This document shows positions 33,756-64,000 of a DNA stretch of 64,000 nucleotides, piece after piece. This DNA comes from a phage. How positions within the stretch are numbered: the stretch's first letter is position 1; every line of letters starts with the position of its first letter. A program made the translations under genes and the position numbers. The stretch lies in the sequence record OZ346189.1, one strand, 5' to 3'. Below the pieces are notes generated by a model. That model made no database searches, was not told the DNA's origin, and worked only from the letters and a program-made list of their open reading frames with translations.

Positions 33756-34086
33756 AAGGAACCTCTCTTCTGTGGTGTGCTTCTATTCAAGATAAACCTA
33801 TAAAAGTCCATTTGATGAAGCCGTATAACTTTTTATACTTACGCTTCAGTGCTAACAATTTTATCTTGATTTTCTTGATAGATTCCCGCATTTCGACCCC
33901 TTATGCTTATAAGTACTCCGCATCGCATTCAGGGCAATGCCAAATAAAATCGTCCAGTGCCTTGCACCAACGAAGATTGCAACGACAACCACACTTGCAA
34001 ATTTTATAAATACCTTTAGACATACTGTACCCCCCAGCTCACTGTGTGTCAATAATATGCCACATCCTTGTGGCTTTTGTCAAGTA

Positions 34087-35292
34087 TCAGCAACTACAAC
34101 TTCCATAGTGCTTAACTCGCTCGATAACTTCCGCTTGCTTACCTTTATTGTAAGGACGGGAGTTAGGACTGGAAAGGTATCCAGACACACGTCGAATTAC
34201 ACTGATCGTTCCCTCTTCATGGTTTCCACACTCTGGGCATACAAAGCCTTTAGCTGTTGCACTGAACTCACCAGAGAAACCACACTTGAGACATTTATCC
34301 ACAGGTTGGTTAATACCAAAATACATAATATGTTTATACCCGAAGTCAACAAGAGCCTCTAAAGCATCCAGGTTGTTTTTCAGGTTAGGTGTCTCTACGT
34401 ATCCAATGTTGCCACCAGAGGAGATCATAGCAAAACCTTCCTCATACTCCCACTTATCAAAAGGAGAGCTATTTATCCACACTGGCTGATGGAAACTGTT
34501 GGTGAGATATTCATGCTCGTGCTTTAACACTTCTGGATATTCACGATCCAGACAGGTTGCAGCTTTATAGCATAGACTCTCAGAAGGAGTGCCGTACAAG
34601 CTAAATGCTAGTCTACTTTCCTTCTTGTATCGCTCACAAGCATCTCTCATGTGCTGAAGGATTCCAAGAGCTAAAGCCTTGTCACCTTCTCTGCCCAAAA
34701 TCTGACAGGTTTCATACACACCAATATACCCAATACTGATGGAAGCGTACCCGTCATAGAAGAGTTTATCAATACTTTCTTCGGGATCCAGGCGAGCAAG
34801 AGCGCCTTCACACCACATGATGGGGTTCTGCCCTGCCTTTGTTCCTTTTAGACGGTTAACCCTTACAAGGTGAGCCTCGTATGCAAGATCCAAGTATTCG
34901 TCAAGAACTGCAAAGAAATCAACACATTCCGTCTTAGCTTTTGCCGCAATCATTGGCAGGTTAAGGCTAACAACACCCAAGTTGAATCTGCCGAGGTATT
35001 TCTCCTCACCTGTTTCCAAGTCATTGTATTTGCTAAGAAAACTCCGGCAACCCATACTCGTTACTTTGCCATCTGTCGAGCCTGTCACTTTACGATTTAG
35101 TGGAACAGAAACAAAGTCAGGATAAATCCGCTCTGCAGAGCATTCCAGAGCTAATCGTTTCAAATCATAGTTAGGATCTCCGGGGTTCATGTTGACACCC
35201 TCTTCTAGGAAGAACAGCACTTTAGGGAACACAGGTGTGATACGTTCTTCACCAAGACCCATTTTGTGGACTTTCAAGTAATTTTTGGTAAT
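34087..35292 (-). CDS. nrdD: anaerobic ribonucleoside-triphosphate reductase, exon 2 (C-terminal part)
   Basis: C-terminal zinc ribbon (CLKCG...CPECG) and glycyl-radical motif RRVSGYL; the 5' boundary (3' splice site) is approximate. Confidence 0.65.
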   Translation of the reverse strand: MTKNYLKVHKMGLGEERITPVFPKVLFFLEEGVNMNPGDPNYDLKRLALECSAERIYPDFVSVPLNRKVTGSTDGKVTSMGCRSFLSKYNDLETGEEKYLGRFNLGVVSLNLPMIAAKAKTECVDFFAVLDEYLDLAYEAHLVRVNRLKGTKAGQNPIMWCEGALARLDPEESIDKLFYDGYASISIGYIGVYETCQILGREGDKALALGILQHMRDACERYKKESRLAFSLYGTPSESLCYKAATCLDREYPEVLKHEHEYLTNSFHQPVWINSSPFDKWEYEEGFAMISSGGNIGYVETPNLKNNLDALEALVDFGYKHIMYFGINQPVDKCLKCGFSGEFSATAKGFVCPECGNHEEGTISVIRRVSGYLSSPNSRPYNKGKQAEVIERVKHYGSCSC

Positions 35293-36143
35293 CATTCTAC
35301 CAAAGACCGAGGTATCCAGTCCTAAACTTAATGTGATGAATGGAGTCTGCTGTCTCCTCCCTGTGTTTCCACAGGGCCAGACTATCTATTACTCTACTTC
35401 AATAAGATAATAACCCTTTATTGTGAGATGCTTACCTTCGGCATTTCCTTCGATAGCCCTGTGAACGTTACCTACGTTCAAATTTAAGGCTTTTGCACAG
35501 GCGTAGAGTGAAGGATATTCACCCACCAAGATTTTCCCTTTGTATGCCTGCACTTTCCTATAGCACTTACCTGGACAAAGTCCTGTTCGGAAAGCATGTC
35601 TCTTATTATCTTCCGGCAAAACCCACTCTAGGTTAGACGGATGATCATTCAATGTATTGCCATCTTTATGATTCACTTCCCAGTTTTCAGGGTCTTCTGG
35701 GACATCTGGCAAACAATACAAGGCAACAACCCTTGAGGTTTGGATTCGAATCTTTTTACCTTTGTGGTTGAAAGAGTACATATAACGGCGTTTAACATGC
35801 TTATTACCTTTTCCATAACCTCCCCACAATATTGGGTGCAGCATTCCACGTTTTCCGTATACGTTTCCAACTTCATCAATCACATAGTTTGATTCTTCAC
35901 CATTAAGAATGATCTTTTTCATAGAGCCTCTCCATTTCGAAGTTAGTATTTCAACTAACCCCTACACTACTTGGTTCAGAAATGTTTGTCAAGCATCTCT
36001 GCCTTTCGTTAGTCGTTACAACCGTTCCAACTCCTGTAAGAACTAGTCACGGGATTGGCATAGCTTTCGCCTTAGCGTTCCCCGTTAGCCGGATTTACCG
36101 ACCCCTCTTATGAGGTTAGGAGAGTTTTACAACGGCCAGTTTG
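35293..36143 (-). other. group I intron (IA2-like) within nrdD
   Basis: exon 1 ends ...AACGGU then UAA; intron contains UAACGGGGAAC and CAAUCCCGUGACUAG as in the T4 td intron, an R-like GUAACGACUAAC element, and UAGAUAGUCUGG (S-like) after the HEG; boundaries approximate. Confidence 0.55.
35389..35922 (-). mobile_element. HNH homing endonuclease encoded within the nrdD intron
   Basis: HNH motif EVNHKDGNTLNDHPSNLEWV; GGAGAG RBS. Confidence 0.7.
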
Positions 36144-37007
36144 TTAACCGTTGACAGAAGTTAACGTATTGATTTGATAGAGCAAAGTCTGCATGCTGTC
36201 AAATACGTCTTTATCTGTCATTTGCATTGCAACAGTCTCAGCATCTGGCAACCAATGTTCCTGGCAAAATTTAAGGTTCTTCTCATAAGTCGCCTCAGCA
36301 TACTGTGCCAAATAATGGTCAATATGGCTCATAGTCTGACCCCCATATTGAGCACTAGCTACTGCACTAGAGATTTGGCTAAGGATTGTTGTTGCAACCC
36401 CTATTGACTTCGGCTTACTGACATGGGCGTTACCAATGTTGAATCCGTTTTCCAACATATCTGGATAATTTACCAAACAACAGTTTGTTAACGGACTGAT
36501 CAAGTAGTCAAGATCATGCACATGGATGAAGCCTTTATTGTGCTCTTCTGAGACACGGTCTGGCAGGATCTGTGTTGATGCAAGGTGTTTGCTAAGGATG
36601 CCTGCAAGCAGGTCACGATGAGTGTGTACATGATTGGTAGGCTTATTTGCGTTTTCTTTTGTAAATTCATCACAAGTTCGATCCAAGAAGCCACTAATAT
36701 CTGCAAGCAGTTTTCCACCTGCCTCTCTGTTATTATCTCTTGTCTGTCTATACTGGATGTATTCTCTGGCTGCACATTTTAAACCCATATCCATAAGAGC
36801 ATCTTCAACAAGGATATGGATATTTTTTACAGAGATCGTGCACTGGTCGGTTGGTAGATTGTTAGCAACAACTTCATTAACCGCACAAGCGATCCGGTAA
36901 GCTTCTTCTTCAGTATGTCCAGACTCAAGTAAGGCGGACTCTGCCGCCTTGATCACCTTAATTCCGTTATAGACCTCTTCTCTACCGTCCCGTTTTACAA
37001 CTTTCAC
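36144..37007 (-). CDS. nrdD: anaerobic ribonucleoside-triphosphate reductase, exon 1 (ATP cone and N-terminal catalytic part)
   Basis: FIHVHDLDYLISPLTNCCLVNYPDMLENGF is the NrdD signature; ORF ends in a stop at the 5' splice site. Confidence 0.75.
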   Translation of the reverse strand: MKVVKRDGREEVYNGIKVIKAAESALLESGHTEEEAYRIACAVNEVVANNLPTDQCTISVKNIHILVEDALMDMGLKCAAREYIQYRQTRDNNREAGGKLLADISGFLDRTCDEFTKENANKPTNHVHTHRDLLAGILSKHLASTQILPDRVSEEHNKGFIHVHDLDYLISPLTNCCLVNYPDMLENGFNIGNAHVSKPKSIGVATTILSQISSAVASAQYGGQTMSHIDHYLAQYAEATYEKNLKFCQEHWLPDAETVAMQMTDKDVFDSMQTLLYQINTLTSVNG

Positions 37008-60742: not shown

Positions 60743-60817
60743 GCCCTGTTAGCTTAGTGGATAAAGCAGCGGCCTTCTAAGCCGTTGACACTGGTTCGAG
60801 TCCAGTACGGGGTGCCA
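60743..60817 (+). tRNA. tRNA-Arg (anticodon TCT)
   Basis: hand-folded cloverleaf: acceptor GCCCTGT/ACGGGGT, anticodon stem GCGGC/GCCGT with loop CTTCTAA, T-arm ACTGG-TTCGAGT-CCAGT, encoded CCA. Confidence 0.65.
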
Positions 60818-60821
60818 AATT

Positions 60822-60900
60822 GGGGAGTTATCCCGTAGAGGTAGCGGTGTAGACTGTAAATCTATTGTCATTGCGACTCGGGTGGTTCGACTCCACCACT
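60822..60900 (+). tRNA. tRNA-Tyr (anticodon GTA)
   Basis: acceptor GGGGAGT/ACTCCCC, anticodon loop CTGTAAA, long variable arm, T-arm GGTGG-TTCGACT-CCACC, CCA. Confidence 0.65.
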
Positions 60901-61022
60901 CCCCACCAAATTTATATTTTTAGATGCATAAATAATACAGATAATGGCATTGATATTTATCGTCGTTTATACTAGTCACTAACTGCTCGAAAATCAGTGT
61001 CATTATCAGTATAATTTATAAA

Positions 61023-61113
61023 GGAGGGTAGGGAGCAATGGTGCTCAAGCGGTCTTGAAAACCGTCCCGTTGAGGATGACTCGATGATGGTTCGATTCCA
61101 TTACTCTCCGCCA
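61023..61113 (+). tRNA. tRNA-Ser (anticodon TGA)
   Basis: class II fold: 3-bp D stem, anticodon loop CTTGAAA, long variable arm, T-loop TTCGATT, CCA; acceptor has one G-U pair. Confidence 0.55.
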
Positions 61114-61210
61114 CATTGTTGACCTTGTAATTAAGCGAAAGCCGGAAGCAGAACCGGATTATCAAATGTTACAGTCGTCATCGCCGACTAGCAACATGGT
61201 CAACATACTG

Positions 61211-61308
61211 AGCTAGGTAAGCCCTTTGGCAAGGGCGAGGATTTTTAATCCTGAAAATAGACGAGGTAGTCGTTGAATACATAGGTGGTTCGATTCCATC
61301 ACCTAGCA
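61211..61308 (+). tRNA. atypical tRNA-like sequence (anticodon loop reads TTTTTAA, possibly Lys-TTT) with an approximately 30-nt insertion in the variable region
   Basis: acceptor GCTAGGT/ACCTAGC, D-arm GCCC/GGGC and T-arm GGTGG-TTCGATT-CCATC are recognisable; anticodon stem has only 4 bp; no encoded CCA. Confidence 0.3.
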
Positions 61309-61315
61309 CCTTTTT

Positions 61316-61391
61316 GCTGATGTAGCACAATCGGTAGTGCAATTGATTTGTAATCAATAGGTTGTAGGTTCAAGTCCTGCCATCAGCACCA
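61316..61391 (+). tRNA. tRNA-Thr (anticodon TGT)
   Basis: acceptor GCTGATG/CATCAGC, anticodon stem ATTGA/TCAAT with loop TTTGTAA, T-loop TTCAAGT, CCA. Confidence 0.65.
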
Positions 61392-61392
61392 A

Positions 61393-61467
61393 GGCCCTGT
61401 AGCTGGAAGGTTCAAGCAAGCGACTCATAATCGCCAGACGGTGGTTCAATTCCACCCAGGGCCACCA
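61393..61467 (+). tRNA. tRNA-Met or tRNA-Ile2 (anticodon CAT)
   Basis: acceptor GGCCCTG/CAGGGCC, anticodon loop CTCATAA, T-arm GGTGG-TTCAATT-CCACC, CCA. Confidence 0.6.
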
Positions 61468-61478
61468 AATAGTAAATA

Positions 61479-61555
61479 CTCCGCGTAGCTCAGCTTGGTA
61501 GAGCGCCTGATTTGGGATCAGGAGGTCGAGTGTTCGAATCACTCCGTGGAGACCA
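61479..61555 (+). tRNA. tRNA-Pro (anticodon TGG)
   Basis: acceptor CTCCGCG/CGTGGAG, D-arm GCTC-AGCTTGGTA-GAGC, anticodon stem CCTGA/TCAGG with loop TTTGGGA, T-arm GAGTG-TTCGAAT-CACTC, CCA. Confidence 0.7.
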
Positions 61556-62375: not shown

Positions 62376-62659
62376 GAGTTGCTACACTGTTTATTGTGTG
62401 CTTGTTATTATGTGGGTGTGCAACCAGCGTTGAGAGAGAATACAAGATTGACCCTCCTGATGTAGGAAGGTTGATTGTTAAACCCCCGGAAGGTGCCATG
62501 AAACCACCTGCTAAAGCTATGCCTTTGAAGAAAGGTGCGCCAGATGCAGTGAATTCTGGCATTATGAGGGATAATAATCTGTCTTGTAGCAATGATAGAG
62601 CTAAATTGATCATTTTGCAAGACTATATTAGAACACTTTTTCCAAAGGAGAGAGGTTAA
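62372..62659 (+). CDS. o-spanin (Rz1-like outer-membrane lipoprotein)
   Basis: signal peptide with lipobox-like LLCGC; proline-rich mature region. Confidence 0.55.
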   Translation: MRVATLFIVCLLLCGCATSVEREYKIDPPDVGRLIVKPPEGAMKPPAKAMPLKKGAPDAVNSGIMRDNNLSCSNDRAKLIILQDYIRTLFPKERG

Positions 62660-63087
62660 TGTCTAAGATTTACGGACCGTGTTCTGAAAAGCAGAAGATG
62701 ATCCTAGAAAACGATGCAGATATTTTGGTAATCGGCGGTGCCGCAGGGTCTGGCAAGTCGTTCCTCTTGCAATTGATGCCACTTAAAATTATTGATGACC
62801 CCCACAGCTCTGTGGTTATGTTCCGAAGAACAACCCCACAGTTGGAAGGTGAGGGTGGATTATGGCCTAAAGCAGTAGCTATTTATAGTGATCTGCCTGA
62901 AAACATTAAGCCAAAGTTTAGAGAGAAGGATCATAAGTTCATTTTTCCACGGTTTGATCCGAACACTGGCAAGTGGGATAGAAGCAAAAAGGGAGCTGTT
63001 GTAAAATACTGCCACATGGAGTATGTACAAGATAAGCTTAACCATCAGGGGCTTGAGTACACCATGGTTTGCTTCGATGAGGGTTAA
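62659..63087 (+). CDS. terminase large subunit, exon 1 (ATPase N-terminus)
   Basis: Walker A GGAAGSGKS preceded by Q..L..DADILVIGG; RRTTPQL; Walker B MVCFDE; ORF ends with a stop directly after the exon-final GGT. Confidence 0.6.
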   Translation: MSKIYGPCSEKQKMILENDADILVIGGAAGSGKSFLLQLMPLKIIDDPHSSVVMFRRTTPQLEGEGGLWPKAVAIYSDLPENIKPKFREKDHKFIFPRFDPNTGKWDRSKKGAVVKYCHMEYVQDKLNHQGLEYTMVCFDEG

Positions 63088-64000
63088 TTTGTAGCTCTCG
63101 TAAAACCTCCCTAATTGCGGGGAAATCTTTATTATTGACACCACCAACCTGTCATGGTAACATGACAGAGGCTTCGAAGAGAGATCGAAGGTATGGTAAC
63201 AGTGTGTTAATTTAGATAATCCGCAGCGAAGCATCCGAGAGGATGAACGTTCAACGACTAGTCGAAAGACGTAGAATCAAGCGATTCGAAACGGGAGGGT
63301 GAATGTGTAATACTAAGAAATGTATGGATTGCCAAAGAGTTCTACCTATTGATGATTTCTTTTTATCATCTAAGAGCAAGGATGGATACTCAGGTACATG
63401 CAAGGAATGCTATATGTACTACAGGAAGGGTGGATCTCGTAAAAACAAAAATATGGTTAAGAGAGATGATGCAGCATTGTTTATTCAAGACTTGCTGAAG
63501 AAAGGTGAACTTTTTGAATGCAAATCTTGTCATGAAAGTATGCTCGCTGATAGTTTTTACACAAAACGTGACTATGGTAAAGTATATCTGGTTACGAACA
63601 GGTGTAAGATGTGTGAAAAGTTTTATCAGATTGAGAAGAAATTTAACATAACAAAAGATGAATACTATCGTCTACTCTCAGATCAAGATCATAAGTGTGC
63701 CATTTGTAGAATATCCCTTGATGAGTATAGGACGCAAGGGTATAGAGATTTCTTTTGTGTTGATCATGACCATAAAACTGGTGCTGTAAGAGGGTTGCTT
63801 TGTGATAAATGCAACAGAGCTTTAGGTTTCTTCCAAGAGGATGAGGAAACTATTCTTAGAGCGGCAGAGTATTTACACATTCATAAGATATAGTCTGGTC
63901 TGCATGGAGACATGCAGCTGCCTGAAAATGGCGGGGCAAGACTAGCGACCTTGCCCGAACATAAACGACACAATTCGAATGGGAGCAGATAGACTACCTG
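63088..64000 (+). other. group I intron in the terminase large subunit gene (partial; continues beyond the window)
   Basis: begins after an exon-final U; contains P element AATTGCGGGGAAA (63113..63125) and R-like GTTCAACGACTAG (63248..63260); UAGUCUGG follows the HEG stop. Confidence 0.55.
63303..63893 (+). mobile_element. Endonuclease VII-type (HNH-like) homing endonuclease within the terminase intron
   Basis: CAICRISL...FCVDHDHKTGAVRGLLCDKCN, the T4 Endo VII family motif; GGGAGGG RBS. Confidence 0.7.

Follow-up and report, generated by a model that had tools for sequence, protein, structure and literature searches.

A probable self-splicing group I intron of the SPO1 type, carrying an HNH endonuclease gene, in nrdD of a Vequintavirus

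Introduction

In the stretch of 64,000 nt of phage DNA that was analysed (the window), nrdD, the gene for the class III ribonucleotide reductase, is present as two ORFs with the gene of an HNH endonuclease in between. This raises the question whether NrdD is made as two polypeptides, whether the gene has decayed, or whether the inserted segment is an intron. The initial annotation favoured a group I intron like that of T4 td, in a genome otherwise not organised as T4. The source phage is a Vequintavirus (rV5-like), its genome organisation is indeed not of the T4 type, and the three ORFs were present as claimed, with Pfam domains that agree: the N-terminal part of NrdD (36144..37007, ending ...SVNG and then TAA), the HNH protein (35389..35922) and the C-terminal part of NrdD (34087..35295, with an in-frame ATG at 35295). 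The analysis described below makes us confident that the element is a mobile, self-splicing subgroup IA group I intron of the SPO1 type.

Results

Limits of the intron and restoration of the NrdD frame

The limits of the insertion were set by the intron-less allele of phage APECc02. A block of 797 nt is missing exactly from this allele and from those of rV5, Murica, HMD-6 and ECP26, so that the intron occupies 36146..35350 of the minus strand and separates codon 287 from codon 288. The interval 35293-36143, which had been proposed earlier, is thus not the intron. Its 5' edge was 3 nt short because the TAA that opens the intron had been excluded, and its 3' edge (35293) overshot by 57 nt, the exon having been assumed to start at the first ATG of the downstream ORF. 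Exon 2 does not resume at about 35292 but at the CAG at 35349, and the 18 codons QTPFITLSLGLDTSVFGR (35349..35296) upstream of the ATG at 35295 are part of it. The intron ends in ...GACAG (35350), with the terminal G of group I introns.

Conceptual splicing at the predicted junction, ...GTCAACGGT joined to CAGACTCCA... (AACGGU and CAGACU in the RNA), gave a NrdD of 707 aa that aligned without gaps and with 99.6% identity to the uninterrupted NrdD of APECc02. The alignment of the joined exons recommended by the initial annotation recovered the protein, with the splice site moved to 36147/35349. The spliced product is a single NRDD match over profile positions 1-562 (Pfam, 537.6 bits); exon 1 holds the ATP-cone and positions 1-154, and exon 2 positions 156-562 and the Gly_radical domain. 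The group I core of the RNA, and the stop codon that comes right after exon 1, led us to dismiss an intein and a group II intron.

It was also considered whether the insertion stays unspliced and NrdD is assembled from two separately made polypeptides. Most GenBank records have two separate nrdD ORFs and an HNH gene annotated, the ATG at 35295 could serve the downstream ORF, and a split ribonucleotide reductase that functions without splicing has a precedent in nrdA of Aeromonas phage Aeh1, which is divided by mobE (PMC3045599, as described in PMC3653736). However, a start at 35295 would cost the protein 18 conserved residues and the seamless continuation of the NRDD profile from 154 to 156. 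The structure of the RNA, described in the next section, also argues against it.

The possibility that nrdD is a decaying pseudogene, and the intron-like sequence a dead relic, was raised by V18, a relative with frameshifts at both nrdD intron sites in which nrdD is not annotated. In the window, however, both exons are open and differ from the uninterrupted allele of APECc02 by 44 synonymous and 3 non-synonymous changes, which indicates that the host gene is under selection, and neither the intron helices nor the endonuclease ORF are disrupted. Decay is thus extremely improbable.

Fold of the intron RNA

The helices assigned to the intron RNA are given in Table 1. Unconstrained MFE folding of the ORF-deleted intron and of a natural ORF-less intron found in relatives gave in each case P1, P3, P4-P6, P7.1, P7.2, P8 and P9. 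The folding z-scores were -5.5 and -3.75, respectively, and none of 200 shuffles folded as well.

Table 1. Positions of the exons, the intron, its ORF and its predicted helices in the window.
Feature	Position	Strand	Description
nrdD exon 1	36147..37007	-	GTG start, 287 codons, ends GTC AAC GGT; edge from intron-less allele
P1	36130..36153	-	exon CAACGGU (36147..36153) with intron guide GCCGUUG (36130..36136); MFE fold
Group I intron	35350..36146	-	first bases UAACAAACUG, last ...GGAGACAG, terminal G at 35350
P3 5' strand	36119..36124	-	CUCUCC, pairs with 35928..35933; MFE folds of both variants
Two hairpins between P3 and J3/4	36088..36115	-	CCUC-AUAA-GAGG, GUCGG-UAAAU-CCGGC; both folds
J3/4, P4 and P5/P5a	36050..36087	-	J3/4 UAA; P4 CGGGG/UCCCG around P5/P5a with GAAA loop; fold and partial Rfam match (model 60-149)
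P6/P6a	36020..36048	-	GAC...GUU; GUUCUUAC-AGGA-GUUGGAAC; two compensatory pairs relative to the ORF-less variant
P7 5' strand	36010..36014	-	GACUA, pairs with UAGUC 35380..35384; pseudoknot with P3
P7.1	35977..36001	-	8-bp hairpin, only in the ORF-containing lineage
P7.2	35939..35962	-	GUAGGGG...CUUC, then GAAAU
P3 3' strand	35928..35933	-	GGAGAG; doubles as Shine-Dalgarno of the endonuclease ORF
P8 stem	35921..35926 and 35392..35397	-	CUCUAU (includes AU of AUG) with GUAGAG (last two sense codons)
HNH homing endonuclease gene	35389..35922	-	177 aa; looped out of P8
P7 3' strand	35380..35384	-	UAGUC
P9 hairpin	35359..35376	-	CCCUGUG-GAAA-CACAGGG; then 9-nt tail to terminal G 35350
nrdD exon 2	34087..35349	-	420 codons and stop; opens CAG ACU CCA (QTPF...); glycyl-radical domain

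The 86 proposed pairs were examined in an alignment of seven sequences, which was N-padded, segmented by hand and fitted to the structure, and hence leans towards it. In this alignment 97.8% of the cells were paired, and ten pairs were changed on both sides (one each in P1, P3, the second hairpin, P7.2 and P9, two in P6a and three in P8) versus 0-1 in slid controls. This covariation amounts to one evolutionary contrast, because the alignment holds essentially two lineages. A plain MAFFT alignment of both lineages, in which the P7.1-P3'-P8 region was misaligned, was dropped.

P1 was paired in 100% of the cells and places a U·G wobble (U36147·G36136) at the 5' splice site. Its compensatory change, C-G to A-U in the ORF-less lineage, lies between the exon and the intron. 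The U at position -1 (GGT) was found in all intron-bearing alleles, whereas the five intron-less alleles (5/5) have GGG. CUG (36137..36139) could form a P10 with the CAG that opens exon 2. P3 shows a C-G to G-C change between the variants, and covariation of its long-range pairing CUCUCC/GGAGAG was seen in viral contigs, among at least 18 distinct related introns; P1 likewise covaries across many of these. P7 was assigned by direct complementarity, is invariant in 7/7 sequences and fits the Rfam consensus GACUA...AUAGUC. P7 is separated from the 3' strand of P3 by P7.1 and P7.2, the hallmark of subgroup IA, and the GUAGGG...CGAAAY motif of P7.2 is common to this intron and those of T4 td and nrdB.

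The two hairpins that follow the 5' strand of P3 were at first sight a new structural variant. This was rejected, as the SPO1 intron is arranged in the same way; so are the related viral-contig introns, but not those of T4 td, nrdB or nrdD. Literature searches yielded no name for these hairpins.

The folding and covariance-model checks proposed in the initial annotation gave the P1-P9 folds described above and sub-threshold matches to the Rfam model Intron_gpI (RF00028): 23.3 bits (E = 0.0015) for the window and 29.8 bits (E = 5.7e-5) for the ORF-less variant, at a gathering score of 50. A scan of the whole window at the gathering threshold returned tRNAs only and nothing at the intron. The proven introns of T4 td (40.3 bits) and T4 nrdB (35.7 bits) are also below this score. 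Because these introns fall short as well, the gathering score has no discriminating power for introns of this kind that hold an ORF or extra hairpins. The Rfam helix assignments for the window were discarded, as the alignment draws a portion of the endonuclease ORF into the model, and the Rfam P3 of the ORF-less variant was rejected in favour of the covarying CUCUCC/GGAGAG because it is not conserved in the window.

These results bear on the reading of nrdD as two polypeptides. The exon ends given by the intron-less alleles exactly enclose a complete group I core, whose helices are kept by compensatory changes, one of them between exon 1 and the intron guide. Fixation of the U at -1 is confined to intron-bearing alleles, and unspliced expression gives no reason for the conserved 257-nt spacer of the ORF-less variant. 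We consider it very unlikely that the insertion stays in the message, and the results favour a spliced intron.

The endonuclease gene

The 177-aa protein encoded within the intron matched the Pfam family HNH_3 (PF13392) with 29.5 bits (cut-off 24.8) and PHROG 59 (3.6e-26). With phmmer a weak similarity to I-HmuI (1U3E) was found over residues 8-160 of 177 (E = 1.8e-4), in which His85 and Asn106 align with the HNH motif. The division of nrdD by a group I intron holding an HNH gene with its own ribosome binding site, as claimed initially, is thus borne out by the intron-less allele, the gapless NrdD, the P1-P9 fold and an HNH_3 match above the cut-off.

The endonuclease ORF has the 3' strand of P3 as its Shine-Dalgarno sequence and its start codon within P8. 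Folding of the intron and translation of the endonuclease therefore probably compete. Inside the intron no sigma-70-like promoter for the endonuclease gene passed the criteria of the scan; TTGACA-N17-TAGTGT in P7.1, a candidate internal promoter, failed them and was dropped.

The intron might splice while the HNH protein no longer drives homing, being inactive, directed at another target or used otherwise, for example as a splicing aid; the patchy distribution would then reflect recombination and loss. The residue preceding the catalytic His, a metal-ligand Asp in I-HmuI, is Asn here, and the match to PF22083 (I-HmuI NUMOD-like C-terminal DNA-binding domain) is below the Pfam cut-off (18.4 bits versus 27). 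On the other hand, the His and Asn of the HNH motif are in register with I-HmuI, and the ORF is intact, and at least 98% identical, in 28/28 records. Compared with phage FV3 it has 17 synonymous and 2 non-synonymous differences, and by this count it is under strong purifying selection.

Distribution and probable mobility

Among about 118 phage records, all from one genus, approximately 75 are without the intron, 14 have an ORF-less intron and about 29 an intron with the endonuclease gene. The position of the junction is identical in all alleles compared, so that the intron is polymorphic for presence and absence at one site. Murica, which is intron-less, and isim, a carrier, belong to the same species. 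MaxBurger is a further phage with the intron, and JohannBauhin and MaxTheCat are further ones without it. This pattern fits active homing.

In the ORF-less alleles, synonymous changes are clustered in a delimited segment between about -40 and +12 relative to the site, which resembles a co-conversion tract. A long tract is not visible in the endonuclease-carrying lineage, because its exon flanks differ from those of intron-less alleles at only two positions. The ORF-less intron keeps a 20-nt remnant of the 5' end of the endonuclease gene in its P8 loop (17/20 matches; 0/2000 shuffles as good). The allele of V18 has co-converted flanks, no intron and a 2-nt deletion, and is a candidate for imprecise loss, unless it reflects an error of assembly. 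A second nrdD intron occurs in some relatives.

For a loss of the homing function it may be said that the ORF-less intron persists in 14 records, so that its own endonuclease is dispensable for keeping the intron, and that the flanks of endonuclease-carrying alleles lack a long tract. The occurrence of carriers and non-carriers within the same species and the purifying selection on the intact ORF speak against it. Loss of homing function is therefore improbable, although less so than the two readings of nrdD discussed above, and an endonuclease that would still promote homing is preferred.

Outside this genus, a search for an intron at the same nrdD site was made among 44 viral contigs sharing the P4 core; in one of these the core lies in nrdD, and this contig is itself rV5-like. 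No match in GenBank phages was obtained by blastn when a member of this intron class from a gut metagenome served as query.

Discussion

According to the mechanism we propose, nrdD would be transcribed as a single pre-mRNA. The intron would fold such that P1 presents the U·G at U36147, with P3/P7/P8 and P4-P6 as the catalytic core. Free guanosine would attack the 5' splice site, and the freed exon 1 would then attack after the terminal G 35350, so that AAC GGU is joined to CAG ACU and the 707-aa NrdD is restored. The I-HmuI-like HNH endonuclease of 177 aa would cut or nick the intron-less nrdD of co-infecting Vequintaviruses near the insertion site, and recombinational repair from the intron-bearing genome would copy the intron together with some flanking exon, which constitutes homing.

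In architecture the intron matches most closely, as judged from sequence, that of the DNA polymerase gene (gene 31) of Bacillus phage SPO1, which encodes I-HmuI and has relatives in SP82 and phi-e, and not that of T4 td. In both, two hairpins part the 5' strand of P3 from J3/4-P4 (the SPO1 layout being CCCAGU ... GAA-hairpin-GUGU-hairpin-GC-UAA-CAGGGG, with GCUGGG as P3 3' strand after GAAGC), P7.1 and P7.2 are present, and an HNH ORF is looped out of P8 (CAACCGUUGAG/CUCAACGGUUG in SPO1). Almost all of the 177-aa protein can be aligned with I-HmuI. The two differ in the gene that is interrupted, in phage family and in bacterial phylum; their nucleotide sequences share no extended similarity, and that of the proteins is weak. 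Splicing of the SPO1 intron and nicking by I-HmuI have been established experimentally, whereas the intron described here is known from its sequence. I-HmuI has been reported to nick intron-containing as well as intron-less DNA.

The likeness to T4 td that had been proposed holds for short core blocks of the IA type (13-28 nt). The blocks quoted in its support, TAACGGGGAAC (36077..36087), CAATCCCGTGACTAG (from 36057), TAACGACTAAC (about 36010..36019) and TAGATAGTCTGG (about 35377..35388), are present and have TAAACGGGGAAC, CAATCCCGTGCTAAAT, CTAACGACTAT and GATATAGTCTGC as counterparts in td. Near-identity is seen in P4 (UAAACGGGGAAC / CAAUCCCGUG), in P7 (AACGACUA / AUAGUCUG) and in GUAGGG...CGAAAC of P7.2. 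It does not extend to the overall architecture, which is that of SPO1/I-HmuI. The td intron lies in another gene, has a P2, lacks the P3-P4 hairpins and carries its ORF, I-TevI of the GIY-YIG family, in the loop of P6. The blocks in which it resembles the window intron are 14-24 nt long. No T4 match was found by blastn with the window intron, and the best local block shared with the T4 nrdD intron is 17 nt.

An intron in nrdD had also been considered a T4 hallmark at a plausible site. The gene is the same, and so is the conserved region of NrdD; the T4 intron (sunY) is likewise a mobile coliphage intron with a subgroup IA core, P2 is absent in both, and P1 and P3 are joined by the same GUAAAA linker. 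However, in the alignment of the homologous sequences the T4 insertion point falls 32 nt upstream and interrupts the Tyr codon of AYE-Y-EVNTLFSSNG, whereas the insertion here follows ...SVNG. The T4 endonuclease I-TevII is of the GIY-YIG family and encoded downstream of the core, in contrast to the HNH gene in P8, and the T4 intron has no P3-P4 hairpins and scores 105 bits on RF00028 versus 23-30 here. The window intron is thus inserted 32 nt from the site of an unrelated one, and nrdD provides another instance of ribonucleotide reductase genes as hot spots for homing elements. It also places an intron of the SPO1/I-HmuI type, known from Bacillus phages, in coliphages.

The element as such is ordinary, already annotated as an intron in the BASEL phage records, and nothing in it will surprise a specialist. 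The BASEL paper states only that intron boundaries were annotated. In most GenBank records of this phage group nrdD is entered as two fragments beside a stray HNH gene; what should stand there is the single 707-aa NrdD encoded by 37007..36147 joined to 35349..34087. In automated annotation, pan-genome counts and Vequintavirus phylogenies both nrdD intron sites should be handled as mobile insertions whose flanks undergo gene conversion.

It is conceivable, though we hold it with some reserve, that a single site in one genus displays every stage of a homing endonuclease (empty GGG/CAA, invaded, endonuclease-less and candidate loss) and that splicing and endonuclease translation are mutually exclusive for each transcript. 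If so, the BASEL Vequintaviruses, which can be cultured, would lend themselves well to measuring rates of intron gain, decay and loss.

Introns at other sites are known from the same subfamily, the Vequintavirinae. A survey of ribonucleotide reductases does not mention rV5-like phages, and no literature on rV5_ev genomes was found. Pectobacterium phage CB7 carries HNH-containing group I introns in terL, the DNA polymerase gene, nrdA and nrdB, with splicing demonstrated by RT-PCR (PMC7344957). They differ from the window intron in gene and sequence, and nrdD of CB7 is uninterrupted (PMC7344957). The HNH-carrying group I introns of rV5, which has none in nrdD, lie in the terminase gene and are the only ones that the rV5 paper mentions (PMC3606486). 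A terminase intron is also present within the 64,000-nt window.

Boundaries of the nrdD intron

The 3.1 kb around the nrdD insertion matched 121 phage records with 90-98% identity, nearly all from Vequintavirus (rV5-like coliphages). By match length these relatives fell into three allele states: full-length matches shared the insertion, those about 540 nt shorter had it without the endonuclease gene, and those about 797 nt shorter had no insertion at all. The three ORFs of the initial annotation were recovered in the ORF list with identical coordinates. In Pfam, the upstream ORF matched the ATP-cone and positions 1-154 of NRDD, and the downstream sequence, read from 35349, matched NRDD positions 156-562 and the glycyl-radical domain. 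The insertion was placed by aligning the window with APECc02 (empty site), AlexBoehm (short insertion), MaxBurger and phita32. Comparison with the intron-less allele showed that the 3' limit proposed earlier, 35293, overshoots by 57 nt, because the downstream ORF had been taken to start at its first ATG.

Features of the nrdD locus in the window
Feature	Position or sequence	Strand	Basis
Gene order	nrdA, nrdB, glutaredoxin gene, nrdD, small ORF, nrdG	-	ORF list
nrdD exon 1 end	...GTC AAC GGT, 36147	-	alignment with APECc02, AlexBoehm, MaxBurger, phita32
nrdD intron	36146..35350, 797 nt, UAACAA...GACAG	-	alignment with APECc02, AlexBoehm, MaxBurger, phita32
nrdD exon 2 start	CAG ACT CCA, 35349	-	alignment with APECc02, AlexBoehm, MaxBurger, phita32
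P7	GACUA 36010..36014 with UAGUC 35380..35384	-	complementarity, as Rfam consensus

Joining the exons in silico gave a 2124-nt ORF, the 707-aa product of which aligned without gaps to the uninterrupted NrdD of APECc02 (99.6% identity) and yielded one Pfam NRDD match spanning the entire profile. The exons differed from those of APECc02 by 44 synonymous and 3 non-synonymous changes and are still under purifying selection. Evidently the phage still requires NrdD, and the intron is hence presumably spliced. Both the seamless junction and the selection on the exons argue against a split gene that is not spliced and against a decaying nrdD pseudogene.

The GTG start of nrdD (window 37007) overlaps the glutaredoxin stop codon and is also used in other records. 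In the BASEL records (CDS start of the relatives' loci L002 and L003, locus 607) nrdD begins 213 nt downstream of it, which would cut most of the ATP-cone domain (Pfam: residues 1-91). Between nrdD and nrdG lies a conserved 38-aa Cys-rich ORF (MSKGIYKICKCGCRCNLRWCKALDDFIWHCPECDAEYL, window about 33907..34023, minus strand), which every relative has as a hypothetical 117-nt ORF; its product looks like a small zinc-ribbon protein.

In FV3 (2012) and most later records, nrdD is annotated as two fragments together with an 'HNH homing endonuclease'. The BASEL records join the nrdD CDS across a 'putative homing endonuclease', comparative annotation having been used to set intron boundaries (PMC8594841). 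The nrdD intron is ordinary and already recognised in database annotation. It is absent from rV5, for which terminase introns alone were reported (PMC3606486). Introns with HNH genes occur in terL, the DNA polymerase gene, nrdA and nrdB of the related Certrevirus CB7, and RT-PCR showed that they splice (PMC7344957). Our literature search found no paper on the structure of this nrdD intron or testing its splicing or homing.

Group I fold and covariation

The RNA blocks quoted in the initial annotation were found in the window and resemble the T4 td intron core. The Rfam Intron_gpI model did match the intron (23.3 bits; E = 0.0015 when 1 kb was searched), albeit below the gathering score; the ORF-less variant reached 29.8 bits (E = 5.7e-5). 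For calibration, the T4 td and nrdB introns, which carry ORFs and are proven to self-splice, scored 40.3 and 35.7 bits, both below gathering, and T4 nrdD 105. Unconstrained folding of the window intron with the ORF interior removed, and of the natural 257-nt variant, gave the same architecture (z-scores -5.5 and -3.75). The predicted fold comprises P1, with a U·G wobble at the 5' splice site defined by the intron-less allele, a long-range P3, two hairpins, P4-P5, P6/P6a, P7.1, P7.2, P8 and P9.

In a seven-sequence alignment of two intron lineages, fitted to the structure by hand, standard pairs made up 97.8% of 550 pair cells. Both sides had changed in ten pairs (P1, P3, second hairpin, two in P6a, P7.2, three in P8, and P9), against 0-1 when partners were slid 1-3 columns as a control. 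The compensatory change in P1 spans exon and intron (exon GTC to GTA, guide sequence G to U). As these ten changes represent roughly one evolutionary contrast, wider support was sought in viral contigs. A scan for the P4 core (TAACGGGGAAC...CAATCCCGTG) returned 44 loci in diverse phages, only one of them in nrdD (an rV5-like contig). At the 44 loci the P1 guide sequence fits the preceding exon, whatever that exon is, and at least 18 distinct members have freely covarying P3 pairings (e.g. CACAUCU/GGAUGUG, GGUGGU/GCCACC and CGAUGU/GCAUCG). The P3 3' strand always follows GAA(A/G)(C/U), downstream of P7.2, and all members have two hairpins between the P3 5' strand and J3/4-P4.

Comparison with the SPO1 and T4 introns

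The SPO1 DNA polymerase intron is the host of I-HmuI. It has the same two hairpins between P3 (CCCAGU/GCUGGG) and P4, as GAA-hairpin-GUGU-hairpin-GC-UAA ahead of P4, and an 11-bp P8 encloses its endonuclease ORF. The idea that the two hairpins were new was rejected on this ground. In contrast, the T4 td, nrdB and nrdD introns lack them and share just 13-28-nt blocks with the core of the Vequintavirus intron in local alignment; blastn gave no T4 match. The T4 nrdD intron interrupts the Tyr codon in AYE-Y-EVNTLFSSNG-QTPF, and its endonuclease, the GIY-YIG enzyme I-TevII, is encoded downstream of the core. The insertion site in the window, after ...SVNG, is 32 nt farther downstream in the gene. 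The description 'td-like' therefore holds for the subgroup IA core motifs only. The closest described relative is the SPO1/I-HmuI type.

The HNH endonuclease gene

The 177-aa ORF in the intron matched Pfam HNH_3 (29.5 bits, cut-off 24.8). Its protein aligned over residues 8-160 with I-HmuI (PDB 1U3E, E = 1.8e-4) and also with PHROG 59; a match to a NUMOD-like DNA-binding domain fell under the Pfam cut-off. At 98% or higher amino-acid identity the endonuclease occurred in 28 phage records, all in Vequintavirus nrdD, and the next best matches, from unrelated phages, reached at most 42%. Between this gene and its FV3 counterpart there were 17 synonymous and 2 non-synonymous changes, which shows purifying selection on the endonuclease. 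This selection, like that on the exons, the seamless junction and the compensatory changes, argues against a third alternative, an intron with an endonuclease that is no longer active, as well as against the unspliced split gene and the pseudogene. The fold, the compensatory changes, HNH_3 and the exon junction bear out the original claim of a group I intron with an HNH gene in nrdD. We read the element as a mobile SPO1-type group I intron at codon 287/288, with an I-HmuI-like HNH gene in P8; its splicing and homing are strongly implied.

The Shine-Dalgarno sequence of the endonuclease gene, GGAGAG, is the P3 3' strand, and the P8 stem is made by its AUG and its last two codons, so that ribozyme folding and endonuclease translation should compete. 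A search for a sigma-70-like promoter within the intron found none.

Distribution and signs of mobility

Among 118 records with this part of nrdD (GenBank/RefSeq duplicates included), about 75 were intron-less (rV5 included), 14 had the ORF-less intron and about 29 the window's version. Murica (empty site) and isim (occupied) are assigned to one species. The site read GGG/CAA in 5/5 intron-less alleles examined and GGT in 7/7 intron-bearing ones, which supplies the U required for P1. ORF-less-intron alleles showed a bounded patch of synonymous changes, about nine within 40 nt upstream and four within 12 nt downstream, which is what would be left by co-conversion from a diverged donor. The P8 loop of their intron (L002 1440..1475, AlexBoehm) contains a hairpin-capable 20-nt stretch resembling nt 26-45 of the endonuclease ORF (window 35878..35897; 17/20 identical, 0/2000 shuffles as good). 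This remnant indicates that the ORF-less intron is a deletion derivative of an ORF-containing ancestor, rather than one that never acquired the gene.

rV5_ev146 (L060, LR699804) has the intron with its endonuclease gene, whereas the intron is missing from rV5, rV5_ev156 and rV5_ev168. The three 'ev' genomes are named as rV5 derivatives and, if laboratory-evolved lines, would document intron gain directly; we found no paper on them. Escherichia phage V18 (L061, KY683736; 1691..1998), in which nrdD is not annotated, has the co-converted flanks typical of ORF-less alleles without the intron. It shows a 2-nt deletion right at the insertion site (GGT/AACCCC versus GGT/CAAACCCC), regains the frame near residue 362 and changes frame again precisely where the second intron inserts (387/388). 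Either both introns were lost imprecisely and left a pseudogene, or the sequence has an artefact of assembly or editing. Furthermore, 18-19 'Campylobacter phage' records (MG0656xx, host C. jejuni) contain an nrdD with 95-99% identity to this Vequintavirus gene, and all three intron states occur among them. Their labels look doubtful, the phages being otherwise indistinguishable from coliphages.

Other probable introns and RNA genes

The second nrdD insertion, after residue 387 (window about 35050/35049), is absent from the window and occurs in phita32, 241Ecol014PP, probably JEP1, and an IMG/VR rV5-like contig (relatives' loci L004 2352..3068, L054 and L016). It matched RF00028 (35.3 bits in phita32) and holds another HNH ORF (about 170 aa) in some carriers; the L016 copy, of about 250 nt, has no ORF. 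In the terminase region RF00028 gave a second group I signal in the window (63075..63917, plus strand; 47.5 bits, E = 5.6e-9). It begins at the end of ORF 62659..63087, which has a terminase large-subunit Walker A motif, and holds a 196-aa ORF (63303..63893) with a Cys-rich, endonuclease VII-like motif. Most likely it is the intron that was described in the rV5 terminase gene (PMC3606486). A tRNA gene cluster at 60743..61552 (plus strand) comprises at least six genes, with two further weak tRNA-like matches at 60822..60904 and 61023..61109.
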